Virus record (IMG/VR): IMGVR_UViG_3300046462_000479
Source of the DNA: a virus
Lineage: Duplodnaviria; Heunggongvirae; Uroviricota; Caudoviricetes
Direction: 5' to 3' (one strand)
Length of the DNA stretch: 64,000 nt
Below are positions 9,041-63,742 of this stretch, one piece after another. Position 1 is the first letter of the stretch. Each line of letters opens with the position of its first letter. The notes under the pieces are model-generated. The model saw only the letters and a list, made by a program, of their open reading frames with translations, searched no databases and had not been told where the DNA came from. Both the position numbers and the translations under genes were made by a program.

Positions 9041-9056
9041 GTGTGACATGTCACAC
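9041..9056. repeat. 16-bp palindrome
   Basis: Perfect match; the Ku GTG start is 14 nt downstream. Confidence 0.9.
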
Positions 9057-20592: not shown

Positions 20593-20602
20593 CATGTCAC
20601 AC
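20587..20602. repeat. 16-bp palindrome; its central ATG is the start of the next gene
   Basis: Perfect match. Confidence 0.9.
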
Positions 20603-35800: not shown

Positions 35801-36740
35801 GCGACCCGAACCGTGCCATGCCAGGGAACAGCCGTCGGCCTCTGCCACCGAAGCCACCGCGTCCGAATCCGAACATCCACGGGACAGGGATACCGCCGCC
35901 GCCACCCCAGCCCATGGCCTGCAAGAAGCCGGGCTGGTTATCTCCGCCGCGGCCGCCGATCAACCCGAGAAGGCCGCCCATGAAGTTGTGCGAAGGATCG
36001 TTCGGGTCGATGCCGCGCGACCTGAGATACCGCACTGCGCCAGCAACATCACCGCCGCCCACCTGGCTCATACGCAGGATCGGGTTCGGAGGCAAAGGAC
36101 CTTTGCCGAACGAGCCTACGTCCCGACGGATCCGTTCCGCATACTGCGCGTCCTGCGCGAAGATCCTGTTCTGTAGCAGCAGGTTGGCCGGGTTATAAGG
36201 AACCATCTCCCGACCGGGAGGCACTCCGCCACCGGCAGGCGCTCCGCCTGCCGTGAAGATCCTGTTCGGACGTGTCACCTGCTGCCATGCCGACCCGTTC
36301 CAGATCAGGTCCTGTGACGTGGGGGGCAGGAACGTGCCCAGCGACGACCGGGCACGCCCGACACCCATCGGCATCCCCGAACCACCGTATTCTCCTCTGG
36401 CCCGCCCAACGAGATCGAGCGCTACTTTCGCCTCGACGGCTGCGTTGCGGATGTCATTGATTTGGTCGACTTCCTGCCTGGACGCAAGCGCGTTCTGCGC
36501 GACAGCCGATTGAGGAACGTACAAGTCGGACATCTTGGAACGGACATCGCTGACCGTGTCCATGGTGGACACGAGGGCGCTGTCGATGATCTTCAGGTTG
36601 CCTTTGACCTGAGCGACAGCCCGCTCGGGAAGCTCCATATCTCTCAGGTCGGTATTCAGCCCAGCCATGGCTCGCCGGGCGTCGTCGATTGCCTTCTCGG
36701 TTGCGGCAAGCTGCGTGTCGGCAGCCTTCATCCCTGCCAT
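32826..36740 (-). CDS. tape measure protein (1304 aa)
   Basis: Size; coiled-coil N-terminus; Gly-rich segments; follows G/GT. Confidence 0.85.
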   Translation of the reverse strand: MAGMKAADTQLAATEKAIDDARRAMAGLNTDLRDMELPERAVAQVKGNLKIIDSALVSTMDTVSDVRSKMSDLYVPQSAVAQNALASRQEVDQINDIRNAAVEAKVALDLVGRARGEYGGSGMPMGVGRARSSLGTFLPPTSQDLIWNGSAWQQVTRPNRIFTAGGAPAGGGVPPGREMVPYNPANLLLQNRIFAQDAQYAERIRRDVGSFGKGPLPPNPILRMSQVGGGDVAGAVRYLRSRGIDPNDPSHNFMGGLLGLIGGRGGDNQPGFLQAMGWGGGGGIPVPWMFGFGRGGFGGRGRRLFPGMARFGSLGGLAGFGAERALTSTLGIAGSGVGALLGGGLLAGGALATTAVGMGTDLAGTGQALHGITTTAQAMDKLDVAIATYGKNSRQAVTAQKQLNAAMAEFDPRVRKAYMAAAQTSVAFGDMFHKLTAPAAKTGADIIRQIMLVGEKFLPTIGKFAAENTKIIQKGLQPLFSWLQQAGPQGGLGIFTDLEKIFQKRLPQSIHMLTQAFELFMKVLDAAAQHTGGLIKGLDHFFTKWNSPQNWGQVHHVVESLIHMFDVWLNLFKQIGGALFAVFKPAVGFGTQFIGMLADIIGKIRTWLNLTTTQAALHSLFEAHLAQIKALFGLLNVLLPVLEQTALAFIKVEAAVSQVVAGALRVFVWMINQILRIPLAKTLLGWVFALYLMRSALRSVTVMMGLNSGAGLLGSILGVGRATTATTGLFYGMAGAETTAAGATTGLAATITGTLFPALTALATRFGPMLGLIGAGALGAAMAFTEPSASAKQSIKDLGLKSVGNGVYWSKNTGYVTVSQSGAVTPTTLSGAATHPTRGGGGAPGGPGRGTGDQPAVDRFTMGMLTLPGSIQLAVSRAQGSPNTADDVRANKRAIAYYNNLLRMPGLTSSQKASIIDQINTYKTLNNNAGAGNIPKAGSVPTTGGGGGLGLLPAGMQAALSNAGQRAALAGGSGTAAQQLAANKALLAQQEKALNWLKAQTYTGKQLLAQKREELALAKQIEATQKRIHGGAGSPGSLAIDKILGIGSGKSVAAQLTIAGRERKIMLDFLEHLLGGRKHDIGVTAAALGITRSQLANESLAKLMKQITGTGFRFDSTTLKELRKIHEVLALARKENITLSTAQKDKITSWLQNINNTLKGQSGMGTNYRPVSIESLVNRIPGLSYAQKKLLEANLSQAQAHHFRVPTGGAAAGIALPSGVGPHSNIGAITGLPHPVPTHKHPNVRHPQSYDSGGIHVHGDIVINSSSVNADQLARELRAKLIRNSRRNATQTRGPNAGRSVGLN

Positions 36741-38590: not shown

Positions 38591-38606
38591 GTGTGACATG
38601 TCACAC
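38591..38606. repeat. 16-bp palindrome 266 nt upstream of the major tail protein start
   Basis: Perfect match. Confidence 0.9.
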
Positions 38607-40648: not shown

Positions 40649-40956
40649 GTCACCTCTAGGACACCGGATAGCAGCACCGGGATTTCCGGGCTGTCTGTGA
40701 CTTTCACGTACACATCATAGAATCCGGCTGGGAGGACGACGGCTCCGCCGGGGCCGACCAGGCAGCGGGCGTAGTAGATGCCGTTCAGGGTGCTCCACGA
40801 TCCCGCGTAGAACGCGGTCGGTTCGGCTGCGGGGTCGGGGAACGCGAACGTGACTGTGTCTCCGGTCGGGTCGCCTCCGGTTGCTTCCGAGATGGGAACC
40901 CTCACGTATTGCAGCGAGGCGCTGTTGATCTGTAGGTCGGCGAGGCTGGCTGTCAT
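40645..40956 (-). CDS. hypothetical Ig-like protein (103 aa)
   Basis: Internal ATG; 4-nt overlap with the upstream gene. Confidence 0.5.
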   Translation of the reverse strand: MTASLADLQINSASLQYVRVPISEATGGDPTGDTVTFAFPDPAAEPTAFYAGSWSTLNGIYYARCLVGPGGAVVLPAGFYDVYVKVTDSPEIPVLLSGVLEVT

Positions 40957-43900
40957 AGCGGCTTTCCTGCGCTCCAATCTTGGTCTGTGTCGTCTGTCTG
41001 AATATCGACGCTCATTCTTCCGGTAGCCCATCCTGATTCTGGCGGGCAGACGGTGTAGTCGGCACCGACGCAGGTCAGTCTTCCGGTCGCCCAGCCGGAC
41101 TCCGGCAGGCCCGCCTTGAAGTACAGGTTCTGGGCTCTGACCGCGGTCGGCGGAACGATCCGGTACTTGGGCTGGCGTCGGTTGCGTCTGAGCGCGTCCT
41201 TGACCGCGACCAGCACGACGGTGAGGACAAGGATCGCGATCCTGCGTGCCGCCAACGTGGTCGGCGGGAAGATGCGGGTGTGCGGCCCGCGCCGTACCGC
41301 TTCCCGTTGGATGCGGCCGTTAAGGACAACCCTGATCGTCGACTGGCTGCGGTCGGGAAGTCGGTATGCGCCCTGGACGATCTTGCGGACGACAGTCGGC
41401 CGCGGCCTGATGCGGACCAGCCTGACCAGCGGACCGAAGAACACCTGCAGGACGGTCGGCTCTCCGAGAACCTTACTGGTCGGCCTAGGCCGTATACGGG
41501 CCAGCGTGACCCGGATCGTCTGCTCGGCCTGCTCGACGGACGGCACCCTGACCTTGGTCGGAATCCGGAGGAATCGGCTGGTCGGACGCGGCCTGGTGGC
41601 GACGGTATGGACGGACGGTCCAGCGAAGACCCGCAATGTCTGCGGCTCGCCGAGCGTCTTGCTGGTCGGCTTGGGCCTGGCGTGGGTGAGCGTGACCGCG
41701 ACAACGGTCTCGACCGGAGGAGTGGAGACGACGGTCGGCTCTCCGAGAACGTGGATGGTGGGTCTCGGCCTGGTGCGGACGAGACTGATGGCAAGCGTGC
41801 GCAGCTTCTGTTCGACCGACGGGACACGAACAACCTGCGGCTCTCCGAGTGTCTTGACGGTCGGACGCGGCCGAGTGTGGGTGAGCCACACAAACGGCCC
41901 GTAGAACGCCGCCTTAGCGACAACAGCCGGTTCAGCCAGGAACGAGCGCGGAGCCCGTCTCTGAGCTTCCAGGCGCGTCCTGAACGCCCTGGTGACGCTG
42001 ATGCTGCTCGTCTGCGGGTAGAAGATGAGCGGACCGAGCGTGCGCCTCGTCGGCCTCGGCCTGATCCTGGCCAGAGCGACCTGGATCGTCTGCATCCGCT
42101 GGGTCGGCAGCGGGATGACAACCGTCGGCGGCCGCAGGACAGAATGGGCTGGCCTGGTGACCCGCCTGACGGTGGCAACCTTGACCGGCGCCTGTGGCGG
42201 TGCGGCAACAATCGTGGGCGGCTGCAGCCTGCGGACGGTCGGCCTGGGCCTAGTCCGAACCAGGTCGACTCTGATCGTCTGTTCCTGCTGCTCGACAGAC
42301 GGAACACGGACAACCTGTGGCGGGCGCAGGAATGAATGGGCGGGCCGCCGCTTGTCTTCCAGCGGTATCCGTACCGCGACCTCGGTTTCTACCGGGCCGA
42401 AGAACTCCTGCAGTGTCGTCGGAGGCGGCAGGAACGCACGAGTCTTGCGTGGCCTTGTGTGAACGAGCGTGACAACGATCTCGCTGGTCTGCGAGTAGAA
42501 GACGGCAGCGAGACGGCGAACAGTCGGCCGCGGCCGGATCCGTGTCAGCGCGACAAGGATCCTGCTCGTCTGCGAGTAGACGGTGTAGCCGAGCTTGGTC
42601 CCGACTGTCGGCCTCGGCCTGATACGGGCCAGGTGGACGGCAGGGCCGTAGTAGATTTGGCCGACGGGGATGACGACTGCCGGTGGCGACAGTTTGGAAT
42701 GCGGCAGGCGACGGCGGTCCTCGACCGGGATACGTACAGCAACCTCTGCTTCGACCGGACCAGCAAAAACCTGTAGGGCCTGTGGCTGCCCGAGCGTTTT
42801 CGTGGTAGGCCGCGGCCGAGCCCGGACCAGATCGACCCTGATCGTCTGCTCCGCCTGCTCAACCGACGGGACACGAACAACCTGCGGCGGAGCGAGGAAG
42901 TAGCGGGTCTCACGCGGCCTGGTACGGACAGCCGCGACCACGACCTCGCTGGTTTGCGGGTAGACGGTGTAGCCGAGCCGGGTGCCGAGCGTATGCCGTG
43001 GCCGCGTGTGGACAAGATCGACGCGGATGGTGTCTTCGGCCAGCTCGATCGAGTACGGGGTGAGCGTCGCCGGAGGAGCAAGCAGCCAGACGGTGTGGCG
43101 CGGCCGGATACGGGCCAGCTCGGAGACGATCTCCAGCCGCCGGTCGGGAGCCCGCAGGTACGGCTCGACAACGGTGGTCTGGAAGAAACGCCGGGTGGGC
43201 CTCGGCCTGGTATGGACGAGCGGTGCGAGCGGCCCGTTGTAGACAGCACGGTTAATGACCTGCGGCTGGCCGAGATCCTTTGTGGTCGGCCGTGGCCGCG
43301 TGCGGACGAGCGTGACGCTGATCGTCTGCTCTCGGTGCTCAACACTGGGGACACGAACGGCCTGTGGTTCACCGAGAACATGGACGGTTGGCCGCGGCCG
43401 CGTGTGGGCCAGCCATGTTCTCGGACCCTGGAAGATCTGAAGTACGGTCGGCGGGCTAAGGAACGTTCTGGTCTTGCGCGGCCTAGCATGGGCCAGCCCG
43501 ACCAAGATCTCGCTGGTCTGCGCGTAGAAGAACGGCGGCCCGAGGTTCGACATCGGCGGCCGACGGTGCCTCCGGTTGAACCGGTCGATGGAGAGCAGGT
43601 TGACGGACGGCCCTTGGAACGTCTGCAGGACGGTCGGAGGACTGAGGAGCGAAGATGGGAAGTGGCGTCGCCCGAATCCGCGGAGCCGGTTGTCCTGGAG
43701 GTTGACGCTGATCAGCGGAGCAACGAACCCGGTTGCGGCGGGAACAAACCCGAACAGCGTGGCCGTCGTCCGGCGCGGCCGGGTGCGCGTCAGCTTCGTC
43801 TTGACGACGAGCTGGCCGGGCGTCGTGACGACCGCGAGCGGCCGGAGGTACAGGGCCGTCGTGAACGTCTTGGTGGTCGGCCTCGGCCGCGTCTTTACAA

Positions 43901-45494
43901 GGTCGACGCGAATCGGTGACGCGACGAACACGGCCGTCGTGATGACGGCGGGCGGAGCGAGCCGAGAGAACGTCCGGCGCGGCCGCGTCCTGGCGACGGC
44001 GACGGCGACATTCTCGGCGATCGGCGACGAGACGACCGTCGGCCCGTATAGGACGCTCATCGCGAGCCGCGCCGACGTGTTCCGGGACGCGCCGACAGCC
44101 CCCGTCGTCAGCCACGTCTGGACGGTTTCGATCCGCTGCGACGGCGGCGCGTTGAATACCTGCGGTGGCGCGATGCCCGCTACGGTGCGGCGACGGACCC
44201 GCGTGACACGCGACGAGGAGACGGCGACGGTAGTGACACTGACCGGCTCGGGGAGCGGCGGCGGCTGCGCGAGCGTCCCAACGGGGAACAGGAGCGACTT
44301 CGGGGCGCGCCGCTGCGCCTGCGCCCGGAGCATCACTGCGACGTCGAACGCGACCCCTTGGTTGATGGTCTGCTGTTGCTGCGAGATGGGAGCTGCCAGG
44401 ATCAGAGGTGGCTTCGGCCCGAGGAACGGCGACCGGTAAACAACCGATGTCTGCGGGATGGATCCTCCGCTGAAGTTGTCGAGGTTTGCGCCAGTCGCGA
44501 AAACGCTCGTCCGGATGTACGGGTAGTAGACGTCGGGCAGGAACGTGGAGTCACTGACTGAGATAGCGAGGAGCCAGTCGGTCGGGGTGGCGCCGTTCTT
44601 CTTCACCCAGACGGTGAGGCGTGTCCCTTCGCGCCTGAGACGGTACGAGTTACCCGCTGCGACCCCGGCGGCAGTAGACCCGGTACCTAGAGTGCTCCCG
44701 GATCCTTTGACGACCTTTATGAGCGTGATGGCTCCTCCGGACTGGGCGAATTGAACGTCGTAGCCGTTCTGGTCGCTGGCGTTCGGTCCAGCCGGTTGCG
44801 CGTTGAGTCCGAGGTTGAAAAAAGAGGCGACGGGCGCCGTGACGGAGTCGACGGCGACCTCGCAATACGGGCCGAATGGTTCTGCCCGGACAGCGATGGT
44901 CGAGCCAGATGTCGAACAGGCCACGTTCGACGTGATCGTGATAGAGCCAGCGAATCCGAATACCGGAGTCACCCAGTCCGGCCCGAGCGCCGCCCTGTTG
45001 AAGTCGTCGATCAGCCCGGATATCGCCGTCGGGACGTCCGTGTACGCCTGAACGTCGACCCATCCCGGGAGCGGGAACCGGCGCTTCTCCGAGATACGCC
45101 GCGACTGACTAGCGAGCGCGACCGTGATCGTCTGCTGCCGTTGGGTCGGAAGCGGCGTTACGAGTTGCGGAGGCTTCGGACCGAGGAGCGGACTGCGAAG
45201 CTGAACGATCTGCGTTCCGCCATCCGACAGCGACGTAGCTCTAGTGAGGCCGCCGTCCCAGCCCTGTAACGGGAACCGGCGTGTCCGGCCGTGGCCACGG
45301 TCGAGACGGTCGACGGCGAGGTTGACGTCTAGCGTCGTAACGACCGGCGGATTCGACGCGTTGGTGACCTCGGCGGGAGTGTGCGGGCCGATGTTGCTGC
45401 CGGAACCGGCGCCGTAGGAAGTGCCGTCTCCCTGGTCGGCGAGTGCAGGTGTTACGAACGCCTGCTGCTGTATGCCGCGGCCTATGCGCGGCAT
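40953..45494 (-). CDS. giant repeat protein (1513 aa): ~330-aa lectin-like N-terminal domain plus ~22 tandem 30-45-aa repeats ending in (T/I)RPR(P/K)T
   Basis: Uninterrupted 4.5-kb ORF; repeated VRVPSVEQxEQTIRVxLVRTRPRPT units. Confidence 0.7.
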   Translation of the reverse strand: MPRIGRGIQQQAFVTPALADQGDGTSYGAGSGSNIGPHTPAEVTNASNPPVVTTLDVNLAVDRLDRGHGRTRRFPLQGWDGGLTRATSLSDGGTQIVQLRSPLLGPKPPQLVTPLPTQRQQTITVALASQSRRISEKRRFPLPGWVDVQAYTDVPTAISGLIDDFNRAALGPDWVTPVFGFAGSITITSNVACSTSGSTIAVRAEPFGPYCEVAVDSVTAPVASFFNLGLNAQPAGPNASDQNGYDVQFAQSGGAITLIKVVKGSGSTLGTGSTAAGVAAGNSYRLRREGTRLTVWVKKNGATPTDWLLAISVSDSTFLPDVYYPYIRTSVFATGANLDNFSGGSIPQTSVVYRSPFLGPKPPLILAAPISQQQQTINQGVAFDVAVMLRAQAQRRAPKSLLFPVGTLAQPPPLPEPVSVTTVAVSSSRVTRVRRRTVAGIAPPQVFNAPPSQRIETVQTWLTTGAVGASRNTSARLAMSVLYGPTVVSSPIAENVAVAVARTRPRRTFSRLAPPAVITTAVFVASPIRVDLVKTRPRPTTKTFTTALYLRPLAVVTTPGQLVVKTKLTRTRPRRTTATLFGFVPAATGFVAPLISVNLQDNRLRGFGRRHFPSSLLSPPTVLQTFQGPSVNLLSIDRFNRRHRRPPMSNLGPPFFYAQTSEILVGLAHARPRKTRTFLSPPTVLQIFQGPRTWLAHTRPRPTVHVLGEPQAVRVPSVEHREQTISVTLVRTRPRPTTKDLGQPQVINRAVYNGPLAPLVHTRPRPTRRFFQTTVVEPYLRAPDRRLEIVSELARIRPRHTVWLLAPPATLTPYSIELAEDTIRVDLVHTRPRHTLGTRLGYTVYPQTSEVVVAAVRTRPRETRYFLAPPQVVRVPSVEQAEQTIRVDLVRARPRPTTKTLGQPQALQVFAGPVEAEVAVRIPVEDRRRLPHSKLSPPAVVIPVGQIYYGPAVHLARIRPRPTVGTKLGYTVYSQTSRILVALTRIRPRPTVRRLAAVFYSQTSEIVVTLVHTRPRKTRAFLPPPTTLQEFFGPVETEVAVRIPLEDKRRPAHSFLRPPQVVRVPSVEQQEQTIRVDLVRTRPRPTVRRLQPPTIVAAPPQAPVKVATVRRVTRPAHSVLRPPTVVIPLPTQRMQTIQVALARIRPRPTRRTLGPLIFYPQTSSISVTRAFRTRLEAQRRAPRSFLAEPAVVAKAAFYGPFVWLTHTRPRPTVKTLGEPQVVRVPSVEQKLRTLAISLVRTRPRPTIHVLGEPTVVSTPPVETVVAVTLTHARPKPTSKTLGEPQTLRVFAGPSVHTVATRPRPTSRFLRIPTKVRVPSVEQAEQTIRVTLARIRPRPTSKVLGEPTVLQVFFGPLVRLVRIRPRPTVVRKIVQGAYRLPDRSQSTIRVVLNGRIQREAVRRGPHTRIFPPTTLAARRIAILVLTVVLVAVKDALRRNRRQPKYRIVPPTAVRAQNLYFKAGLPESGWATGRLTCVGADYTVCPPESGWATGRMSVDIQTDDTDQDWSAGKPL
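41290..44060 (-). repeat. in-frame tandem DNA repeats (~100-130-bp units) inside the giant gene
   Basis: Recurrent GGCCTCGGCCTG...GATCGTCTGC nucleotide blocks. Confidence 0.6.
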
Positions 45495-54371: not shown

Positions 54372-55364
54372 TTACGCAGACACCGCCGTGTGGAAGTAGG
54401 CGCCGAGATCGGCGCCGACGATCTTGACAGCGAAGGCAAGCTCGCCCTCGATGCGGATCGTGCCGATGCCAAGCCACGGCATCGGGATCTGACTGATCCT
54501 GCTTCCGAACGCGCCCGCACCCAGAAGGCCTACCCAGGTGAAGATGTATCCGGCCGACGGAACCATGATCCCCGGCTGCGGCTCCGCGTAGAGCAGCAGC
54601 GCGTCCAGGGTCGGAGCGATGAACGCGAAGCTGTCAGCGCCACCCTGGTTGCCGTTGTTGATGATCGCGGCAGCAACGAGCACCTGGAAGTTGTCCACGC
54701 CAGGCGGAGCGATCAGCGACGCGAGCAGATCGGTCGTAACCACACCACGCTGGGTGTACTTGATGCGCTGCACGATCTCGTCGTGGTTCTTCAAGACCTC
54801 CCACACGCGCGGCCCCAACACGAACTTGTTCGGGAACTTGCCTGTGTTCTGCTTGATCGACCACACCTGCGCCTCGATGTCTTCCAGCGGCGTCGAGTTG
54901 GCCAGGTTCCACTGCGGCGACGGAACAATGTCCGCCCCGGTCGTGGAACCAGTCCACGTGGACACCGCCAGAATCGTTGCCTGAACCAGAACCTCTCTGG
55001 CCAGCAGCATCCGGTGCGTAATCCACAGCGTCGCGTCACGGTCGGCGTTCAGCGGCACATCGGAGTTGGCCCGGATCTGCGGGTCGACGTCCTTGTGGAA
55101 CGCGTAGAGCGGAGCGTAATACGACGGAGTGTTGTCCAGGTTGTATCCGCCACCGACCGACTCGGTCGACGGGGCACGGACCTGTGCTTCGTTCCGGAAC
55201 CAGTCGCCCTTCGTGTACACGAAGTACCTGTCGGACTGCTTCTGTACCGGCACGACAGGGAACACCTTGTCGGCGATGTAGTCCGAAGAGTCCTGCATGT
55301 ACGCCTGGCTGATGTTCGTCAGCGGGCGGTTAACGTGTACTTGGGCAAGATATGGCTCAGCCAT
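54372..55364 (-). CDS. major capsid protein (330 aa)
   Basis: Position after the scaffold; size; capsid-like composition. Confidence 0.6.
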   Translation of the reverse strand: MAEPYLAQVHVNRPLTNISQAYMQDSSDYIADKVFPVVPVQKQSDRYFVYTKGDWFRNEAQVRAPSTESVGGGYNLDNTPSYYAPLYAFHKDVDPQIRANSDVPLNADRDATLWITHRMLLAREVLVQATILAVSTWTGSTTGADIVPSPQWNLANSTPLEDIEAQVWSIKQNTGKFPNKFVLGPRVWEVLKNHDEIVQRIKYTQRGVVTTDLLASLIAPPGVDNFQVLVAAAIINNGNQGGADSFAFIAPTLDALLLYAEPQPGIMVPSAGYIFTWVGLLGAGAFGSRISQIPMPWLGIGTIRIEGELAFAVKIVGADLGAYFHTAVSA

Positions 55365-55385: not shown

Positions 55386-55820
55386 TTAGTCGCCCGCCGC
55401 AACCAGCCCGGAAGGCTGGAACAGCATCGAAGAAATGATTCCCGTGGACCCGGCTTCCATTGCCACGCCGAGGACCTGGGTTCCAGACACGGTGTACGGG
55501 GTACCCGTGAACACCGTTGCGCCTGTGTACTTGACTGCGCGGCCGGACGAGTCGGAGGAGAGCAGATCTCCTGCGTTGAACGATCCGCCGCACAGCACCT
55601 TGCTTGGCCCGCCAGTCCTGACCTGGCAGCCGATCGGGATCGCCGTCGTGCCGACCGGAGCGTCCTGCAGGACACCGAGTGCCCTCTGCCCGGTCGCGCA
55701 AGTGGCGATCATCCCGGTCGATGCCAGCTGGATGAACTTGAACTGGTTTGACGCCATCGTCGTGTTACACGTGAAGGTGAAATCCCAGCCTACGTTGGTG
55801 CCGAAAGCAGGTCCAGCCAC
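55386..55820 (-). CDS. putative head decoration protein (144 aa)
   Basis: Lies between the scaffold and the capsid gene. Confidence 0.4.
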   Translation of the reverse strand: MAGPAFGTNVGWDFTFTCNTTMASNQFKFIQLASTGMIATCATGQRALGVLQDAPVGTTAIPIGCQVRTGGPSKVLCGGSFNAGDLLSSDSSGRAVKYTGATVFTGTPYTVSGTQVLGVAMEAGSTGIISSMLFQPSGLVAAGD

Positions 55821-57008
55821 TTATGCCACCCCCCCGTTGCCAGCACCGTAGTGGTACTCCTCGGCCTGGTAACGCTCGTACAGGCGGGCACCCTCGGCGG
55901 TCTTAAGGACCCGGTCGAGCGCCTGCTCCTGCGACAGCTCGCCTGACTTCTCGACCAGGTCGGATGCCATCTTCTCGATCTGCGCCCACGGGCCTTCCTT
56001 GGTCTCGCCGTCGTTCAGTGACGCGCGTCCCATCTCCGTGAACAAGCCGCCCTTGGCGACTCTTTCCTCGGCACCGCTGAGAAGCGCTTCCAGCTTCTCG
56101 AACGTCTCCGGATCGAACTTCTCTGACGCCTCTTTCAGGATCGGAGCGAGGTCGTCGGTCGGAGCGACATGCGAGTAGGAGGCGGCCTTCTGGATCATGT
56201 CGCGGTGACGGAGATCGTCCTGCGACTTGGCCAGCTCCTCCCTCGTCTCTGCCAGCTCACTCTCTGTCTTGTCCGCCTTCGAGATGATCTCCTCGAAGAA
56301 CGGTCGGCTCTCAACAGGGACGCCAGAGAGGTCCCACGTCCCGTCTTCCTTGCGAACCGGCACCTGGACTTCCACTGTGCCCCCTTCGTTGGTTTCTACT
56401 TCGTTTGCCACATCGCCGCTATCGGAATCTGTCTCAGCTTTGCTGAACGGCTTCGCCTTGCGGCCGCCGAACGGCAGCTTCTTTTTCTTCTTGCCCTTAC
56501 TGTCGTCAGCGTCGTCGTCTGGCTCCGCGTCGTTCCCGTCGGAATCTTGGGCGACTTTCGGGGCGGACGCCGTTCCTTCCAGATCGGTGCCGGAACCGGA
56601 ACCGTCCTTGTCGGCCCCGGACGCGGACCCGTACGAGTCGTCCTCGTCGGCGTCTTCGTCGCCGAACAGCTCGGTGGGAGACTTCACCGACGTCGAGTTC
56701 AGCTTCGGGTTGTTACGGCCGTACAGTTCGGTGCCGAGCTTCTCTACCAGCTCGGGAGAAAACTCCCCCTCCACGCCTTTGAGTAGGCGTACGGCAGCGA
56801 CAACGGCCCGCTCGACGGTCTCGTCCATGATCCCGTCCTTGCGGATCTCATCAAGCAGGGCGCCTTCTCGCTCCCAGGGGACTTCGAGAATGTCGTCAAG
56901 CTCGCTGTCCAACTGGTCATCCCCTTTCAGCAGCAGAAAGCGCCGCTTATTCGCGGCGCGGCGGACGACAGAAACCTCGTCCCCATCTACTCCTCCGAGA
57001 AACCTCAC
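55821..57008 (-). CDS. scaffolding-like protein (acidic, coiled coil, 395 aa)
   Basis: Asp/Glu-rich low-complexity segments; position. Confidence 0.5.
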   Translation of the reverse strand: MRFLGGVDGDEVSVVRRAANKRRFLLLKGDDQLDSELDDILEVPWEREGALLDEIRKDGIMDETVERAVVAAVRLLKGVEGEFSPELVEKLGTELYGRNNPKLNSTSVKSPTELFGDEDADEDDSYGSASGADKDGSGSGTDLEGTASAPKVAQDSDGNDAEPDDDADDSKGKKKKKLPFGGRKAKPFSKAETDSDSGDVANEVETNEGGTVEVQVPVRKEDGTWDLSGVPVESRPFFEEIISKADKTESELAETREELAKSQDDLRHRDMIQKAASYSHVAPTDDLAPILKEASEKFDPETFEKLEALLSGAEERVAKGGLFTEMGRASLNDGETKEGPWAQIEKMASDLVEKSGELSQEQALDRVLKTAEGARLYERYQAEEYHYGAGNGGVA

Positions 57009-57026: not shown

Positions 57027-59231
57027 CTACCGGCCGACCATCCAATCCTGCGGCTCCTGCCGCATATATCCGGTTTCGGATTGGGGGATCTGCATGTCGC
57101 GGCGGATGCCGGTGCCGCCGATGGACAGGCCCGTGTATTTGCCGTCCAGGACGTCCTGCCACACGGCCGGGTCTTCGCAGTGCAACACCATCACCCAGGT
57201 GCCCTTCTTCACCATCTCTGTGCCGTCGTAGGTGAAATCGGTGGGGGCAATGAACGACTCGACCGGGACTAGGCTTGGCTTGTTCGTTTTGAAGAATCCG
57301 GGGCGTGCGTGCTGCAGCTTCGACACCGACGCTTTCCCCTTGGCCACGTTCTTCATGTACTTGTGGGCGGCCGACTCGACCTCCTGCGGGATCATCCAGT
57401 CGTCCTGGCTGTCCAGGGCGTTTGGTTCCAGTACGACGCCGTAGATCAGCTGCCGGTGCTTGTCCGCCTTCTGTACCTGGTATTTCAGGCGCCGGTTGGC
57501 GTACATGATCGAGATGTTCTTCAGGGGGACATTGACGTGAACGTCTGAGATGGTGGGGCCGGAAACGGCTGCCATCGCGCCAGCCTCGCCCTGCCCTTCC
57601 AGTCCGGCGGCAGCGTCGCCTACGTCGTTGGAGGGGGGAGCGTCTCCGGCCGGACCTTCGGCGAAGTCTTTGCCGAGCATATCTCCGCCGATGATGTCCA
57701 GCACCTCGTTCCACGAATGGGGCGGCATTTCGGTGTAGTGGCTGACCACGTTCGGGTTGGTCCACTGCACGTTCCGGTTGGCGTCCTGCATGAAGTCGTT
57801 GGCCTGCACTTTCAGGCATTCTCCTTTGCGGGCCCGATGCTTGGTCGGGTTGGTGCGGCCGATGTAGTGGCCGTCGCGGGTGATCATCCGGTAGCTGTAG
57901 CCGCCGTCGGGTGTGCGGCTCATCCCGTGCACACGCAGGTTCAGTGTGGCCGGACGTGCCTGCGCTTTCTTCACCTCGAACGCCTTCTTCGCTTTCAGCT
58001 TGCCGCCTTTGAAGTCGATCTCTAGGATGGTGCCGGGACCGATCTCGTCGGCCTGGATCGCTCTGGTGTCGACTTTGCTGCGGTAGCCGTGGCCACCCAG
58101 CCAGCCTTCGGCCAGCTCGATGTTGCGGCTGTGGGTGATCAGCGCGACCGTGTGGCCTTGGTCGACCATCTTCAACAGCTTCTCCAACGCTGGGATGAAC
58201 CGCTTCTGGTAGGCGTTGAAGGATTCGCCGCCGTCGACGGGCTTGTCGGGATGGTCGTCCATGAACGGCTTCAGTTTCGGGATCACGTCCGCGGACGAGT
58301 GGCCTGCGAACGAGCCGAGGTTCCAGGGCCGGTAGGCGTTGTCTGACTTGACCGGGGCCCCGCAGATACGGCTGGCGATCTTCGAGGTCTGCTCGGCCCG
58401 TGTCAGCGTCGAGCTGTAGATCGTCTCCACTCCCGCGTTCTTCAAGAACTTGCCGAGGTTGCGGGCCTGTACGCGGCCTTGCGCGTCCAGCGGGATGTCG
58501 CGCCAGCCTTGCACGATGTCGTGCGGCGCTCCCGGCTTGTTGTAGCGGGTCTTCGCGTGCGAGACCAGGAACAGTTTCCCTGGCGTCGTTTTCATGGTCG
58601 GCTCGATCGCTTCCCCGAACTCGCGCAGCTTGTCACGCAGCCGGGCGGGAGGGTCTTCGGAGTGGCGTTCCTCCTGCACGTACAACGGGTCATGCTTGTC
58701 GATCCGTCCTTCCCAGCGGTCACAGACGTAGCCTTGGTCGACCTGGACGTTGTCGAACATTTCGCAGCGTCCGGCCGTGAAGAAGTCGCAGTTGCCGCAA
58801 TCTTCGTCTGCGTCGTCTGAGGGACGGTAGTGCGCCCAGCCGGGGATGCCGCTCTTCTTCACGGACTCGGCCAGCTCCTGCTTCTCCCATTCCTTTACGT
58901 CGCGGAGCGTCATCACGCCGCCGTTCGCTTCCACTTTCTCCCGGATGTTGGCGTGTTCCGGCTCAGCCAGACCGTCCAGCCAGTAGGACAGCTCCTGGTC
59001 GACAGGGTCGTGGCCGTACTTGTCGTTGCATTCGGACCGCAGGTCGGGATGGGCGGCCCAGAAGCGGCGTAGCTCCTGTTTGGCGTCCTCTTCGATGGCG
59101 CTGACGTTGGCGCAGTCTTTGTCGACGGTGTGGGGAAGCTTGCCTTTGTTGTCGAAATGATGGCGCTTCACCCAGTCGTGTCCAAAGCGGGCGTTCAGGT
59201 ACTCGCGCTGTTGTTGGCTACGGGCAGGCAT
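57027..59231 (-). CDS. prohead protease (HK97/S78-like C-terminal domain) fused to a degenerate histidine-phosphatase (PGAM/SixA-like) domain and a Cys-rich N-terminus (734 aa)
   Basis: C-terminus DSQDDWMIPQEV...LQHA...GLSIGG (His and Ser); middle QGWRDIPLDAQGRVQARNLGKFL...TIYSSTLTRAEQT...ALITHS. Confidence 0.7.
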   Translation of the reverse strand: MPARSQQQREYLNARFGHDWVKRHHFDNKGKLPHTVDKDCANVSAIEEDAKQELRRFWAAHPDLRSECNDKYGHDPVDQELSYWLDGLAEPEHANIREKVEANGGVMTLRDVKEWEKQELAESVKKSGIPGWAHYRPSDDADEDCGNCDFFTAGRCEMFDNVQVDQGYVCDRWEGRIDKHDPLYVQEERHSEDPPARLRDKLREFGEAIEPTMKTTPGKLFLVSHAKTRYNKPGAPHDIVQGWRDIPLDAQGRVQARNLGKFLKNAGVETIYSSTLTRAEQTSKIASRICGAPVKSDNAYRPWNLGSFAGHSSADVIPKLKPFMDDHPDKPVDGGESFNAYQKRFIPALEKLLKMVDQGHTVALITHSRNIELAEGWLGGHGYRSKVDTRAIQADEIGPGTILEIDFKGGKLKAKKAFEVKKAQARPATLNLRVHGMSRTPDGGYSYRMITRDGHYIGRTNPTKHRARKGECLKVQANDFMQDANRNVQWTNPNVVSHYTEMPPHSWNEVLDIIGGDMLGKDFAEGPAGDAPPSNDVGDAAAGLEGQGEAGAMAAVSGPTISDVHVNVPLKNISIMYANRRLKYQVQKADKHRQLIYGVVLEPNALDSQDDWMIPQEVESAAHKYMKNVAKGKASVSKLQHARPGFFKTNKPSLVPVESFIAPTDFTYDGTEMVKKGTWVMVLHCEDPAVWQDVLDGKYTGLSIGGTGIRRDMQIPQSETGYMRQEPQDWMVGR

Positions 59232-59239
59232 CAGAAGGA

Positions 59240-59255
59240 GTGTGACATGTCACAC
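59240..59255. repeat. 16-bp palindrome 9 nt upstream of the protease-fusion start
   Basis: Perfect match. Confidence 0.9.
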
Positions 59256-60697
59256 TAGGATTGTTCGCTTTTCGCTCCGGAAGGCTGCGCGTCCGAGCCG
59301 GGAGGACCGGCCCCGCTCAGCTGCCGCTGGTCGAAGTCGTATTTCTCTGGGTCGTTGATGGCTGGTGCGCCCATCTGTTCGTTGATCCACGGAAGCGTCG
59401 TTTCCCAGTCGATCGGGGCGCCGGTGCGGCCGATCCGGTTGATGAAGTTGCCCAGCGTGTCCAGGTCGATCGTTTCCACCGAGCTATGACACAGCTTCGG
59501 CATCTCGTCGGTGCGGCCGTTCAGCTTCCACAGGATAGGGATGCACTGCGTGTTAAAGACGCTGCTGATGATGTCAAGGTAGGCGCCCAAAGAGGCTGCA
59601 AACAGGTCCTTTTTCGTGACCGACAGCGCGTACGAGCCGACCTTGTCTTGGCCCATCATCACCAGGTCGGCCAACACCGAGGTGGCCATACGGTTCTCGT
59701 AGCGGCCGATGATCTGGCTGGTGTCGAACTGCCGTGATCCGGCTGACGCCATCAGCTGCAGCTCCCACCCGAACGGCAGCACCACGCCTTCCTGTTCGTC
59801 GCGGCGGATCGACGACACCACCGTTTTCGCCATCTGCAACATGTTGGCCATGCTGGTGTCGGACGCATCCCAAATGTCGGTGCCTTCCGGCGGGATCAGC
59901 ACAGGCAGACCGGCCAGGTCGCGCTCGATCCCGATCGCCTCGATCTGCTGGATGTTCTTAATGAACCACCAGGAGCGGTAGGCGTTGCGGAGGATGCTGC
60001 GGCCTTCCGGGTTGTCCTTGAAGATGGTGGTGCGGAAATGGAGCGCCTTGTTGCGCGGAATGAAGCGGAGCAGATAGTCGGGCGGCGGGTTCTGGATCAT
60101 GCCGTCGATCTCTCCGAAGTCGTTGAACACCCATTTCCACAGGCTGTCCTGGGAACGCAACGGGATCTTGGCCAGCCCGATCTGCCCGTCGTTGTACAGG
60201 CTGGACATGGTCGGACTCTGGTCCCAGCCTTTCCGGACCTTGAACACCATCTCGTGGTAGCTGTAGCCGTACTGGAGGAAGCTGATGATCTCGCTGATCG
60301 AGTCGGCCCAGCTGAACGCCATGTCTTCGCGGACCTCGTCGAACCATTTGGCTCCGGGACTGTCTTTCGGTTCGCTCCACCAGGTGACGCGACGCATGAG
60401 CATGGTGATGGCGTAGAGGACGGCCCCGATGATCGGGTCCTGGTCGCCCATCTCCCGGTATACCTCTGCGGCTCGGCGGCCCTGCTGCAGCTGGGTCAGC
60501 CATTCCTCGAAGACGAAGCCGCCCCAGTGTCTGAGACCGGATCGGCCGAACTCTTCTGTCAGGTCGCTACCGCCGTAGCCGAGGTTGTATTTCGTTTGTG
60601 GGCTGGCGGCTTTGCCCAGCATTGTGCGCGGGCCGAAGTCGCCGACGATGCGGCGGCCCTCGTTGGGGTGGTGTCCGTTGGTTCCGGCGAGAATCAC
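59255..60697 (-). CDS. portal protein (480 aa)
   Basis: Size and position upstream of the protease. Confidence 0.6.
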   Translation of the reverse strand: MILAGTNGHHPNEGRRIVGDFGPRTMLGKAASPQTKYNLGYGGSDLTEEFGRSGLRHWGGFVFEEWLTQLQQGRRAAEVYREMGDQDPIIGAVLYAITMLMRRVTWWSEPKDSPGAKWFDEVREDMAFSWADSISEIISFLQYGYSYHEMVFKVRKGWDQSPTMSSLYNDGQIGLAKIPLRSQDSLWKWVFNDFGEIDGMIQNPPPDYLLRFIPRNKALHFRTTIFKDNPEGRSILRNAYRSWWFIKNIQQIEAIGIERDLAGLPVLIPPEGTDIWDASDTSMANMLQMAKTVVSSIRRDEQEGVVLPFGWELQLMASAGSRQFDTSQIIGRYENRMATSVLADLVMMGQDKVGSYALSVTKKDLFAASLGAYLDIISSVFNTQCIPILWKLNGRTDEMPKLCHSSVETIDLDTLGNFINRIGRTGAPIDWETTLPWINEQMGAPAINDPEKYDFDQRQLSGAGPPGSDAQPSGAKSEQS

Positions 60698-61023
60698 GCG
60701 CTGTGAGTATCGCCCTCCGGGCGGATGCTGGTGATCACGCGGACCAGTCCCCCGTGTTTATCGACCAGATACATGCGTTTCAGGTCGGCCGTCCAGACGA
60801 ATCTCATCGTCCGGTCGCGTTCGTTGCCGTTGCGGCGGCCGCGAACACGGTTGCGGCTGGATACCGCCCAGGACGGCTGCCGGGTCGAGTAGCGGCCCGA
60901 GTCGAGCGCCTCGTTTACTTCCTGGGCAACAAGCAGACGCAGGTAGCTGCCGGACGCCATCTCTTCCGGGAACCGCTCCCGAAACTGGTCGACGGCATGG
61001 TGGGTTACCTCAACCGGCCTCAT
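60694..61023 (-). CDS. hypothetical protein (109 aa)
   Basis: ORF track. Confidence 0.45.
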   Translation of the reverse strand: MRPVEVTHHAVDQFRERFPEEMASGSYLRLLVAQEVNEALDSGRYSTRQPSWAVSSRNRVRGRRNGNERDRTMRFVWTADLKRMYLVDKHGGLVRVITSIRPEGDTHSA

Positions 61024-62014
61024 CGAGCACGCTTTTCGCCCTCGACTGTGCCGTGCGGGCCTCCCGCACGAACGCTTCCAGCTCTTCCGGGTCTGACGTT
61101 TCTAGCGCCTGTTTGGCCCGCTCGCTCACTGTCCGCAGTTCTGCTTTCGTCATCGTTTCCAGTGGCGGCATGATCGTGAAGCACTCAATGAGCGCCTGGT
61201 TGGTCTGGGCGATGATGTCCAGGTATTCGCCCGCACGGTCGCCGACCTCGACCAGACCGTCGAATCCGTCCACGACACCGGCGAGAACGTCGAGCAGGTC
61301 GCGCAGTTCTTCTTGCGGGTCGGGCGGAACAGGCAGACATGAGGTCAGAAACGATTCCGTCTGCATGAACTTGTGAATGTCGTCGGCGTACAGTGTTTCG
61401 CTTTGGCCTTTGTCGATCACCCAGACGGACGCTTTGGTGAAGTGGTGGTCGAAGTCGTACCGGTAGAGGTCGCCGTATTGGCGGGCGACACGGATCATCT
61501 CTCTGACGCTGTAGGTGTGGTGGATGAACTCGCCTACCTGTTCGATTGTCTGGCCTTCCCAGGAGGGACGGATGAACCAGCTGACCACAACGAATTCGCG
61601 TGCCGCCCGACACAGGTTGTGGAGCGCCCTTTCTCCGTCTTCGACGTGTTCGAGCAGATGGCGGACGTAGACGATGTCGGCTGTCTCTAGTTCGTCCATG
61701 TCGAACAGGTCGACGACGTCGAAGGTCAGGTCCGGGTACTGCTCTTTGCAGTAGTTGACGAACCGAGGCGTGAAGTCGTAGCCGGTGTAGCCGATCCTGA
61801 CCGCTTCTCCCGGTTCGAAGCCTTTGATTTCGATGCCGGTGCCGCATCCAACTTCGAGGAAGCTGGACGGGCGGGCGCGGCTGACGATCAGCCGGAGGAT
61901 GCGCCTGTCGGGCGCGTCGGGTCCCTGTCCTATCCCCCAGCGGCCAAGTTCTGTTTCATCGGGCTGGCTGAGGAACGTTTCTGCGTCGAGTTTCGACCAG
62001 GGCGTGTTAGGCAT
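61010..62014 (-). CDS. class I SAM-dependent methyltransferase
   Basis: FLEVGCGTGIE motif I; DIVYVRHLLEHV. Confidence 0.7.
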   Translation of the reverse strand: MPNTPWSKLDAETFLSQPDETELGRWGIGQGPDAPDRRILRLIVSRARPSSFLEVGCGTGIEIKGFEPGEAVRIGYTGYDFTPRFVNYCKEQYPDLTFDVVDLFDMDELETADIVYVRHLLEHVEDGERALHNLCRAAREFVVVSWFIRPSWEGQTIEQVGEFIHHTYSVREMIRVARQYGDLYRYDFDHHFTKASVWVIDKGQSETLYADDIHKFMQTESFLTSCLPVPPDPQEELRDLLDVLAGVVDGFDGLVEVGDRAGEYLDIIAQTNQALIECFTIMPPLETMTKAELRTVSERAKQALETSDPEELEAFVREARTAQSRAKSVLDEAG

Positions 62015-62783
62015 GGTGTCTCCGCATCTCTGCTACCAGCTGGCCGCGGTTGGATTCGGCACGGGCGAGCATCCCTTCCGGGTTAGTGGAGTAGTGGAAC
62101 AGGACCTCGTTGACGGCGGCGAAGCGGGTGCCGCGCCGCATCAGGTCGATCCACAGGTCCCAGTCTTCGTAGCCGCCGTGGACGCCAGGCCAGCCTGCCA
62201 TGGCGGGATGGTATCCGCCGCAGTCTCTGAGGATCTGGGTGCGGAACAGGCTGCAGTAGAAGTAGCGGTTGTAGCCCCAGAGGACCTCTTCGTCGACTTC
62301 GTTGTAGGGGCGGTCGTAGCCGGGCATGTAGGTGCCGTTGCGGGTGGGCCCATGTTCTTGTAGGCCGGTGAGGACAACGTCGGCGTCTTGCAACAGGGGC
62401 AGCGTCTTCTCGATGTAGGTCTCTTCGAGCCAGTCGTCTGCGTCTAGGGGCAGGAAGGCGAGGCTGCGGGTGTTCATCAGGCCGGTGTTGCGGGCCGAGG
62501 GGAGGCCGCGGTTGTTGGTGCGGACGATCTTGACGGGCGTGATCGTGCTGAGACAGTTGACCGGTTCGAGGCTGCCGTCGTCGACGAGGATCACTTCGAC
62601 CGGCATCACGGTCTGTCTGAGCGCCGAGTCTAGGGCCCGTTGCAGCTGGCCGAGTTCGACGTTGTAGCAGGGGATGCAGACTGTCACCCCTTCTTCTAGC
62701 CGATGCAGTTTGTCCAGCGCCTGGTCGCGTTCCACGATCGTCTGGTACTGGTCGGTGCTCATAAACGCCTGGGTGATGCTCAT
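62007..62783 (-). CDS. family-2 glycosyltransferase (258 aa from the internal ATG)
   Basis: VCIPCYNVELGQLQRALDSALRQT...VILVDDGS. Confidence 0.7.
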   Translation of the reverse strand: MSITQAFMSTDQYQTIVERDQALDKLHRLEEGVTVCIPCYNVELGQLQRALDSALRQTVMPVEVILVDDGSLEPVNCLSTITPVKIVRTNNRGLPSARNTGLMNTRSLAFLPLDADDWLEETYIEKTLPLLQDADVVLTGLQEHGPTRNGTYMPGYDRPYNEVDEEVLWGYNRYFYCSLFRTQILRDCGGYHPAMAGWPGVHGGYEDWDLWIDLMRRGTRFAAVNEVLFHYSTNPEGMLARAESNRGQLVAEMRRHHA

Positions 62784-63742
62784 GTCCAACCCAGAGAGGA
62801 GAAGTTGTTGTTGTAGATCATTTCCTTCCAGTCCGGCTCGTGTACCCAGTAGTGGGTGGCGTTGAGCGGGATTGCTTTGTGCAGCCATTGCACAGATTCC
62901 ATGTGTTTGTCCTCTCCGCCGAGGCCCATCTGGTAGCCCCAGCTGACGATGAACGAGTTGATGCACAGGTCGTTGTTTTCGTTGGTGGGTGCCGCCAGCA
63001 GGGTCTGGAACGCTTGTTCTCTGTCGTCTTGGAAGTTGATCCAGAAGTCAGCCATCCATGTTCTTCCCCAGCTGCCGATGCCGGGCTGTCTGACGATGTA
63101 GATGCTGTTTTCCTCGGTCGGGTTAAAGATGTTGGAGTACCAGTCCAGGTGCATGGCGTCGAATGGGGGGCCGCAGCGTATGGTGTTCATCTGCAGCCTG
63201 CGATGTTCTGGTCCGGCCGGGAAGACATGGAAGGTGGTGTCGATCGGCCAGTGGCCGTAGGGGATCGTTCCCAGCCATTCCATCGTGTTTTTGTACAGGA
63301 GCCGGGTTTGGGTGGCGAGCACCATGCTGCGTAGCGGGTAGCCGTAGGGGATCTTGTCGTTGACGCGGGTGTGGGGCCCGACAGCACAACCGGTTTTCTT
63401 GGCTACGGCCATGTAGGCGGCAAAGGCGCGGCTGCTGGCGCCTTCGAAGCAGATGTCGGCGTCTGTGACCGCATACCAGTTGTGCGAGTCTCGGTATTGG
63501 TCTTTGAGAGCGATGTTGTAGTTGTCGGTGAGGGCGGGCATGGAGTCGACTTTTCCCAGCTGGTACACCTTTTTCACTTCTGGGAGCTGTTCGACTTTGT
63601 CGAGTAGACGCAGACAGTCGGGATGGTCGGTTCCGTTGTCGACGATGACCAGCTGGTAGAGCATCTTCATGTGCCGGAACGAGTTGATTGTCCGGGCGAG
63701 CGTGTCCAGCCGGTTGTAGGTGCCGAGGAAGACGGTCAGCAT
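62780..63742 (-). CDS. family-2 glycosyltransferase (320 aa)
   Basis: VFLGTYNRLDTLARTINS...LVIVDNGT. Confidence 0.7.
   Translation of the reverse strand: MLTVFLGTYNRLDTLARTINSFRHMKMLYQLVIVDNGTDHPDCLRLLDKVEQLPEVKKVYQLGKVDSMPALTDNYNIALKDQYRDSHNWYAVTDADICFEGASSRAFAAYMAVAKKTGCAVGPHTRVNDKIPYGYPLRSMVLATQTRLLYKNTMEWLGTIPYGHWPIDTTFHVFPAGPEHRRLQMNTIRCGPPFDAMHLDWYSNIFNPTEENSIYIVRQPGIGSWGRTWMADFWINFQDDREQAFQTLLAAPTNENNDLCINSFIVSWGYQMGLGGEDKHMESVQWLHKAIPLNATHYWVHEPDWKEMIYNNNFSSLGWT

Follow-up and report, generated by a model that had tools for sequence, protein, structure and literature searches.

Why should a phage protease that matures the head carry about 590 residues of unrelated domains in front of it? 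The question is raised by a 734-amino-acid (aa) open reading frame (ORF) on the minus strand of a 64,000-nucleotide stretch of viral DNA (IMG/VR record IMGVR_UViG_3300046462_000479, Caudoviricetes). This whole stretch is called the window hereafter, and ORF coordinates refer to it. The original prediction, made by a model from the letters of the sequence, had placed a prohead protease fused to a degenerate histidine-phosphatase domain at 57027–59231, and the ORF listing bears out this interval exactly. In our explanation, which is probable though far from assured, the product is a head-maturation protease of the polyvalent kind; it would carry its N-terminal passengers into the procapsid and release them by cutting itself. 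The parts of the ORF are the following.

57027–59231, minus strand: the 734-aa ORF, putative polyvalent head-maturation protease (ORF listing; stop codon at 57027–57029)
59121–59231, minus strand: N-terminal motif MPARSQQQREYLNARFGHDW with short helices, aa 1–37 (conserved in the family)
58851–59114, minus strand: helical module, mobile within the family, aa 40–127 (pLDDT about 94)
58698–58850, minus strand: HiPIP-like four-cysteine module, predicted [4Fe-4S] site, aa 128–178 (C145, C148, C156 and C170; profile)
58578–58697, minus strand: linker, aa 179–218, with a helix at 196–209 and an A-[LI]-E-P motif (AIEP, 206–209; family conservation)
57972–58577, minus strand: histidine phosphatase (His_Phos_1, 'RPW' subfamily), aa 219–420 (Pfam, PDB sequence matches, fold and residue census)
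57684–57962, minus strand: OB-fold domain of the ATP-dependent DNA ligase/capping-enzyme type, aa 424–516, lacking an adenylation domain (relatives and structure)
57468–57557, minus strand: copy of the N-arm of the major capsid protein (MCP), PTISDVHVNVPLKNISIMY followed by ANRRLKYQVQK, aa 559–588, in the disordered linker 520–590
57096–57464, minus strand: XkdF-type (assemblin-fold) serine protease, aa 590–712 (candidate dyad His641/Ser703)
57030–57095, minus strand: C-terminal tail of low model confidence, aa 713–734 (AlphaFold2 and family comparison)

The protease and the modularity of its relatives

The protease domain is matched by the Pfam family Peptidase_S78_2/XkdF (PF14550) at aa 585–708 (E = 6.4e-25, 88 bits against a cutoff of 24), and the 734-aa protein matches the PHROG head maturation protease family phrog_3017 (E = 1e-25). 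It contains the motifs LDSQDD (606–611), KLQHA (638–642) and GLSIGG (701–706). His641 of LQH and Ser703 of SIGG are invariant in two family alignments of 12 and 41 sequences and align with QHD and GYSxAG of canonical XkdF proteins; they are the candidate catalytic dyad. The domain has the assemblin/prohead-protease fold. The structural model, built with AlphaFold2 (AF2) on the family alignment, has a mean per-residue confidence (pLDDT) of 76.5; it is confident for aa 40–127 (helical), 130–175, 219–420 and 428–515, moderate for the protease (aa 590–715) and disordered at 520–590. The prohead protease of the original prediction thus stands in its domain, motifs and His/Ser residues, and the family is corrected from HK97 gp4 proper to the XkdF type of PF14550.

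Canonical XkdF fusions (Bacillus phage BMBtp14 gp58, Lactococcus phage 28201 gp33 and PBSX XkdF) have a protease of the same family (33–37% identity) at the same position after the portal, preceded by the same conserved basic motif, 'ISxVxxAANKKxFxLxK'. They have about 50 aa before the protease and a coiled-coil scaffold of 200–250 aa after it in one chain. In contrast, the 734-aa protein departs from the canonical architecture in having passengers of about 590 aa before the protease, only 22 aa after it, and a separate scaffold gene with its own copy of the motif. C-terminal tails are mostly about 30–45 aa long in the close family and 1–11 aa in distant relatives.

A homologue search covering 5.8 billion proteins found 48 metagenomic relatives of the 734-aa protein. 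The closest (P0001) is 85% identical over the full length and has the same N-terminus. IMG/VR relatives were gathered via the protease alignment block, and 80 loci were kept, about 20 of them close. The same family of architectures occurs in the 48 metagenomic homologues and the roughly 20 close loci. The fusion is absent from cultured phages, among which the protease part alone is matched, at less than 40% identity. A search of genome contigs with the protease block gave only distant matches in metagenome-assembled genomes of unrelated phyla and one 52% fragment in a Bdellovibrionota genome.

These relatives bear on whether the fusion is an artefact, namely an assembly chimera, a mis-called ORF or readthrough into the downstream scaffold gene. 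The scaffold ORF does lie in the same frame as the protease ORF, 18 nt past its TAG stop. However, the scaffold gene of locus L001 is in a different frame with several stops intervening, and locus L003 has TAA TAA, which rule out readthrough or a split gene; the common frame in the window is coincidental. Together with the recurrence of the architecture on dozens of independent contigs, these frames and stops effectively refute an artefact, to which we assign almost no weight.

The domains before the protease are modular. The minimal form consists of the OB domain and the protease (L012–L016), and other combinations are HiPIP, OB and protease (P0039), NUDIX, OB and protease (L018 and L022), HiPIP, NUDIX, His_Phos, OB and protease (L001, L017 and L023), and a helical module, OB and protease (L030). 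Relatives at 35–45% protease identity are proteins of 200–1660 aa, nearly all of which end in the protease. Eight large distant relatives were scanned, and Dam methyltransferase, S-adenosylmethionine (SAM) methyltransferase, ATP-dependent DNA ligase, uracil-DNA glycosylase (UDG) and metallo-beta-lactamase domains were among those found. Polyproteins of 1000–1660 aa that end in an XkdF-type protease are located as follows.

L055, 3351–8339
L037, 4122–8339
L006, 4620–8339
L088, 4119–8354
L071, 5226–8363

Polyproteins of this kind carry methyltransferases, a ligase and a UDG-superfamily domain upstream of the protease, and only sometimes a metallo-beta-lactamase domain. This composition suggests that distant relatives load DNA repair and modification enzymes into capsids.

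Because polyvalent proteins were defined by Iyer, Burroughs, Anand, de Souza and Aravind (2017, J Bacteriol), with assemblin-like peptidases 'always at the C termini of polyvalent proteins', the general architecture is already known from computation (PMC5512222). The 734-aa protein shares with this class the presence of at least two unrelated effector-type domains, enzymatic or binding, in one polypeptide of the virion module, a virion gene context and a C-terminal assemblin-like peptidase. Proteins of the class are predicted to enter the head, to be processed by the peptidase and to travel to the host with the DNA (PMC5512222), and the distant relatives with methyltransferase, ligase and UDG domains before the XkdF protease fit the class directly. 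Unlike the class as described there, the 734-aa protein is the apparent sole maturation protease, occupies the canonical position, has a separate scaffold gene and carries a copy of the MCP N-arm. Histidine phosphatase, HiPIP and XkdF are not mentioned in PMC5512222, and NUDIX is mentioned only in passing. Four elements are new: a HiPIP-like module, a phosphatase that has lost the RHG Arg and belongs to a subfamily specific to mobile elements, a ligase OB domain left without its partner domain, and a copy of the capsid N-arm.

The active site of the histidine phosphatase domain

Pfam His_Phos_1 (PF00300) matches aa 220–374 with an E-value of 6.7e-28 (98 bits against a cutoff of 21.7). The best PDB sequence match of the domain is PhoE (1h2e, E = 3.6e-12), and the AF2 model, with pLDDT above 90 in this domain, matches CobC (6e4b), PspA (4ij6) and TTHB049 (2pa0) with Foldseek TM scores of 0.75–0.81. 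Profile searches therefore did not reject the histidine-phosphatase fold that had been proposed. The site residues are S224-H225-A226, R278, R301-P302-W303, E336, H367 and R369. In comparison with PhoE, the RHG motif is replaced by S224-H225-A226, which agrees with the earlier claim that one Arg is lost, and the proton donor Glu83 is replaced by Pro302; Arg59 and His151 of PhoE correspond to R278 and H367.

To place these replacements, we refer to a HMMER scan of 1.84 billion representatives, which gave 8032 His_Phos relatives, the nearest 143 of which outside the family form the outgroup of the residue census. The canonical Glu position is Pro, inside an 'R-P-W' motif, in 134 of these 143, and the Glu of 'G-E-S' (E336 of GESF) is Glu in all of them. 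Because Pro is so widespread in the outgroup and another Glu is invariant, the missing Glu is the signature of a distinct subfamily and not a sign of decay; we infer that E336 replaces the canonical Glu as the proton donor. The Arg following the second His in 'H-x-R' is kept in 136/143, and the RHG Arg is also retained in 136/143. In the protease-fusion clade (n = 34), the latter position is Ser in 29, Ala in 3 and Arg in 1. The RHG Arg-to-Ser change is therefore the only one peculiar to the fusion clade.

The rest of the site is strictly kept in the clade, whose mean pairwise identity is 57%. H225 is present in 33/33 covering sequences, R278 in 34/34 and H367 in 33/33, and His225, Arg278, Arg301, Glu336, His367 and Arg369 are all invariant. 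Lys227 and Arg229, beside the nucleophile, are nearly fixed (30/34 each) and far less conserved in the outgroup. At least 97% conservation is seen in 27 of the 200 columns of the phosphatase domain, and every remaining active-site residue is among them. In our reading, selection acts on this phosphatase site, and the domain is not dead but either handles its substrate differently or serves in binding. The word 'degenerate' in the original prediction is thus apt for the lost RHG Arg, but it does not suit a site in which the Pro at the Glu position is subfamily-wide and the other residues are invariant.

Two other explanations of this site have to be weighed. In the strict sense of the original prediction, an ordinary prohead protease would be dragging along a decaying, functionless relic of a phosphatase. 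One canonical Arg is indeed gone and the canonical Glu position is Pro, but the Pro is a subfamily-wide trait accompanied by an alternative invariant Glu, the degree of column conservation is high for sequences of this mean identity, and the domain is modeled with very high confidence; we consider a relic very improbable. The second explanation is that the domain is a catalytically crippled binder, which sequesters a phosphorylated ligand (for instance, a nucleotide of immune signalling) or holds a phosphoprotein or a nucleic-acid end. In the fusion clade, the replacements of Arg by Ser and of Gly by Ala have become fixed, whereas most of the outgroup keeps the Arg, and there is a precedent in the acid-phosphatase-like salivary proteins of fleas, which have lost catalytic residues and bind ligands (PMC10728186). 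Such proteins of the histidine-phosphatase fold make a 'sponge' reading conceivable. On the other hand, a pure binder would not need all six of the invariant residues named above, and the highly conserved Lys227 and Arg229 could compensate for the lost Arg. A binder without catalysis is therefore unlikely in our judgment, while deserving more weight than a relic.

No characterised equivalog (CobC, GpmB, PspA, SixA or MutT1) was recognized among the NCBIfam models, all of which scored far below their cutoffs (the best, TIGR03162, at 65.5 against 162.9 bits). Many close relatives share the NUDIX-then-His_Phos order of mycobacterial MutT1, which consists of a NUDIX and an RHG phosphatase domain (PMC12407098, PMC11784022). 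The C-terminal RHG domain of MutT1 dephosphorylates sensor histidine kinases (PMC12407098), and by analogy this activity suggests one possible substrate class. The 734-aa protein differs from MutT1 in lacking a NUDIX domain, in its RPW, GES and HxR signature and in its S-H-A, and its match to the MutT1 family NF052459 is far below the cutoff (32 against 475 bits).

Members of the same phosphatase subfamily are also found fused to MuF (P0060) and inside a 2366-aa protein with 2H-phosphoesterase, topoisomerase IB and SNF2 domains (P0082), and a stand-alone member sits in a mobile-element-like contig. The subfamily is a mobile-element-associated, distinct 'R-P-W / G-E-S / H-x-R' type.

Capsid-arm copy, accessory modules and proposed function

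The linker before the protease bears a resemblance to the MCP, which is encoded in the same head block. The order of this block, from ORF, Pfam and PHROG evidence, is portal, 734-aa ORF, scaffold, 144-aa ORF and MCP.

59255–60697, minus strand: Mu-like portal protein, directly upstream of the 734-aa ORF (Pfam Portal_Mu, PF06074, E = 2.2e-26; phrog_113, E = 4.5e-72)
55821–57008, minus strand: 395-aa acidic ORF, probable scaffolding protein (position and conserved N-terminus)
55386–55820, minus strand: 144-aa ORF (phrog_673, weak cement-like match)
54372–55364, minus strand: MCP, 330 aa (phrog_1005, E = 3.5e-70)
55299–55355, minus strand: N-arm of the MCP, aa 4–22, PYLAQVHVNRPLTNISQAY, template of the copy (motif comparison)

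Residues 559–577 of the protease protein (PTISDVHVNVPLKNISIMY) and residues 4–22 of the MCP (PYLAQVHVNRPLTNISQAY) are identical at 11 of 19 positions, whereas shuffled sequences reach at most 9 and average 7.3. The pairing recurs in most of the close loci that hold both genes; in L012, for example, the protease has GPPLSSVHVNRPLKDISVGYMG and the MCP has EPTLSAVHVNRPLTNISQAYMQ. The arm copy is specific to this phage group because no such similarity is found in canonical XkdF phages. Since the segment lies in a predicted disordered linker (pLDDT about 35) and scaffolds contact the capsid N-arm in 80alpha, P22 and phi29 (PMC12749128), we suggest by analogy that the copy may serve as a signal for docking, for cleavage or for both, and may bring the protease polyprotein into the procapsid.

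The arm copy runs into a second element that the polyprotein has in common with the scaffold. Canonical XkdF proteases (BMBtp14 gp58 and 28201 gp33) consist of an N-terminal 'ISYVDKAANKKQFFLTK' motif, the protease and a C-terminal coiled-coil scaffold. The 734-aa protein keeps a version of this motif, NISIMYANRRLKYQVQK, at aa 572–588 (57468–57518), and the N-terminus of the separate scaffold (aa 8–29, 56922–56987) is a second copy, DGDEVSVVRRAANKRRFLLLKG, which is highly conserved in most close loci holding the scaffold gene. It seems that an ancestral single protease-scaffold gene was split and that the motif was kept on both products.

Residues 424–516 gave no match when sequence profiles were compared with PDB and Pfam. 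A hidden Markov model of this domain, however, matches relatives directly after the adenylation domain of ATP-dependent ligases (L088, iE 3.6e-6). A fold search with the full-length AF2 model returned His_Phos matches only; with a second model built for aa 421–734, the top Foldseek match is T4 DNA ligase. Pfam finds no adenylation (NTase) domain (PF01068) in the 734-aa protein, and the slot upstream of the OB domain, which is filled by PF01068 in L088, L037, L055 and others, is occupied by His_Phos. From the models and relatives, this segment is a ligase-type OB domain that lacks its adenylation domain, the remnant of a DNA ligase. The original prediction missed both this domain and the MCP N-arm copy before the protease.

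The four-cysteine module is related to HiPIPs. A profile of 26 family sequences matches PioC (6xyv, E = 1.5e-7) and the HiPIPs 1hlq (8.4e-6) and 1hpi (2e-3) in the PDB, with classical HiPIPs matching at 8e-6 to 0.1. All four cysteines (C145, C148, C156 and C170) align with the cluster cysteines of PioC and 1hlq, and the C-x2-C-x7-9-C-x13-C pattern of PioC with its flanking aromatics aligns residue for residue with the module. Alignment columns C21, C24 and C46 are invariant, and C32 is at least 90% conserved. Pfam HIPIP (PF01355) matches 13 of the 26 family members (best E = 4.8e-6). We predict from these profiles that aa 128–178 form a HiPIP-like module with a [4Fe-4S] site. The description of the N-terminal ~200 aa as Cys-rich was overstated; the conserved Cys motif is real, and it holds four of the six cysteines within about 30 residues. 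HiPIPs are free periplasmic electron carriers exported via Tat, whereas this module lies inside a virion-assembly protein made in the cytoplasm, and no signal peptide is found at its position (aa 128–178 of 734).

Outside the protease fusions, a HiPIP-like module follows the RPW phosphatase by 10–25 residues in the protease-less proteins P0048 (L093 and L094), P0054, P0070, P0098 and P0119. This recurrent adjacency suggests a functional pairing of the two modules. In an unrelated phage, a stand-alone 62-aa HiPIP-like ORF (P0198, L095 7001–7189) is flanked by an SPP1-type portal and a Phage_min_cap2 gene within the head module, so the HiPIP-like module is not confined to protease fusions. A search of a word-indexed database for HiPIP domains returned 15 small proteins, a number that says little on distribution. 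Literature searches gave no report of phage HiPIP-like domains, virion histidine phosphatases or a pairing of phosphatase and HiPIP.

The MPARSQQQREYLNARFGHDW motif is kept at the N-terminus of 13 family members, with AF2 helices at 6–16 and 18–23, and aa 1–37 have no Pfam match. The helical module (aa 40–127) is present in nine sequences, its position varies in L027, L028, L030, P0050, P0052 and P0108, and profile searches against PDB and Pfam gave no match to it. In the linker 179–218, the A-[LI]-E-P motif is conserved across the family with flanks of low pLDDT, and AIEP 206–209 is a candidate processing site. We also considered T4/phiKZ-like [LIA]-x-E cleavage sites in the linkers (L-R-E 199–201 and A-I-E 206–208), but the motif is too short to call.

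In the mechanism that we favor, the protease end would be co-assembled inside the shell during procapsid assembly. The encapsidation of the HK97 protease was reportedly the subject of a study by Duda, Oh and Hendrix in 2013. The N-arm copy and the motif common to the scaffold N-terminus would serve as docking signals, cleavage signals or both, and the passengers would thereby be carried into the procapsid. The protease would then digest the scaffold and cut its own linkers. Once folded, the passengers would be too large for the capsid pores and would remain with the DNA until their release into the next host. There, a phosphorylated substrate, either of the host or related to defence, would be the immediate target of the phosphatase, and the OB domain would possibly keep the cargo on nucleic acid. 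The ancestors of the family would be ligase-protease polyproteins whose adenylation domain was lost or gave way to NUDIX modules, His_Phos modules or both. Loading of the passengers, already proposed in the original prediction, is likely given the precedent of N-terminal fusions to assemblin-like peptidases (PMC5512222), and delivery into the next host with phosphatase action there is plausible.

Two known systems offer comparisons. In T4, capsid-targeting sequences (CTS), processing by gp21 and ejection of Alt and internal proteins form an experimental analogy (PMC9026906). T4, compared along with the ejection proteins of phiKZ and SPN3US, makes its cargo and protease as separate products, whereas the 734-aa protein is one polypeptide, and its putative targeting element resembles the capsid N-arm and not the T4 CTS. 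In MuF fusions (SPP1 gp7 and Mu gp30), a head-internal morphogenesis protein also carries variable effector domains, and the phosphatase subfamily described here occurs on one of them (P0060), but the carrier in the 734-aa protein is the protease. The window ORFs and Pfam show no MuF gene adjoining the Mu-like portal.

Several points weigh against the proposed mechanism. We infer encapsidation, the cleavage sites and ejection throughout for this phage group. The Fe-S domain and the 200-residue alpha/beta domain would have to unfold in the portal and tail channel, with loss of the Fe-S cluster, and catalytic competence of the phosphatase is uncertain because the RHG Arg, normally a phosphate ligand, is Ser. 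The arm copy might have no role beyond cleavage, or might be left over from recombination. The HiPIP-like module of the window copy scores 17.6 bits (E = 0.0047) against the Pfam HIPIP cutoff of 22.

Some of these points suit an alternative in which the passengers never reach the next host and act only within the cell that makes the phage or within the head during its assembly. They might form an internal core or bind DNA through the OB domain and a phosphate-binding His_Phos pocket, provide a redox or assembly checkpoint through the HiPIP-like cluster, or be late cytoplasmic enzymes that share a chain with the protease, are cut off, and are left outside or degraded. Because minimal members without any enzyme keep OB and protease or HiPIP, OB and protease, the OB and HiPIP modules resemble components of the assembly apparatus rather than effectors; an Fe-S domain would not come through ejection intact, and the OB domain is of a DNA-binding ligase type. 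However, close relatives swap the enzymatic modules freely, as is common for conflict or effector cargo but unusual for components of assembly. The His_Phos subfamily found here also occurs on MuF and in giant polyvalent proteins, and it is hard to see why a cytoplasmic enzyme would be tethered to a protease sequestered in the procapsid. We regard this alternative as a serious one that is nonetheless rather improbable.

Still more tentative is a reading in which a group of uncultured phages employs the protease as a cargo loader for a pre-made counter-defence device. Here, the N-arm copy would dock the polyprotein at capsid N-arm sites, on the scaffold or the shell interior, and the HiPIP-like module and the Arg-less phosphatase would be delivered with the DNA after self-cleavage. 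The S-H-A phosphatase would hydrolyse or sequester a phosphorylated immune or signalling molecule, with the HiPIP-type module, which would be oxygen-tolerant, as a redox switch. We hold this only as a speculative possibility.

The surrounding locus and wider meaning

The protease gene occupies the normal position for a protease, with the portal on one side and the scaffold and capsid genes on the other. The order portal, protease gene, scaffold, ORF of about 140 aa and MCP is kept in L001 and L003. The contigs of relatives carry glycosyltransferase and methyltransferase genes, the portal, the protease gene, an ORF of about 390–440 aa, one of about 140 aa and a capsid protein of about 329 aa. 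No tRNA genes are found in the window. Directly upstream of the portal in the window (61010–63742, minus strand) are two family-2 glycosyltransferases and a SAM methyltransferase, and the same block, plus GT6-like genes and further methyltransferases, is found in L001 (1678–8379) and L003 (3687–7944). Such a glycosylation and methylation cassette inside a head module is unusual. Elsewhere in the window, ORFs of 1304 and 1513 aa (32826–36740 and 40953–45494, minus strand) have no PHROG match, and the 1513-aa ORF lies inside a stretch of 66% GC content (40–50 kb) against a background of about 61%.

One further element lies at the start of the protease gene.

59241–59254, no strand assigned: 14-nt perfect palindrome TGTGACATGTCACA, between the portal stop and the ATG of the protease ORF

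The palindrome directly follows the portal stop codon. It is 9 nt upstream of the ATG, as had been stated in the original prediction, which did not recognize it as a genome-wide repeat. With up to two mismatches it has 26 copies in the window, spanning 233–59254, where 0.2 are expected by chance; examples are at 420–433, 1386–1399, 9042–9055, 20588–20601, 38592–38605 and 59241–59254. These copies rule out a regulator specific to the protease gene. The sites are largely intergenic and denser in the first 27 kb, and the half-sites TGTGA/TCACA are CRP-like, but the spacer is 4 nt. The palindrome is probably a phage-wide operator, promoter or terminator element. The 9 nt that separate it from the ATG (59232–59240, CTCCTTCTG) have no Shine-Dalgarno-like purine run. 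Translation of the protease gene may start by coupling to the portal gene or by a mechanism independent of such a sequence.

If the proposed function is correct, prohead proteases would be a general, evolvable vehicle for loading enzymes into capsids, beyond their role in processing, with a range of cargo that includes phosphatase, NUDIX, ligase, UDG and methyltransferase domains. The capsid N-arm copy would be a natural capsid-targeting signal, exploitable for loading engineered capsids, and a HiPIP-like Fe-S module, recurrently paired with a phosphatase, would have a place in virion-assembly proteins. The phosphatases themselves form a branch specific to mobile elements with a rearranged active site, for which nucleic-acid ends, nucleotide signals and phosphohistidine proteins are candidate substrates.

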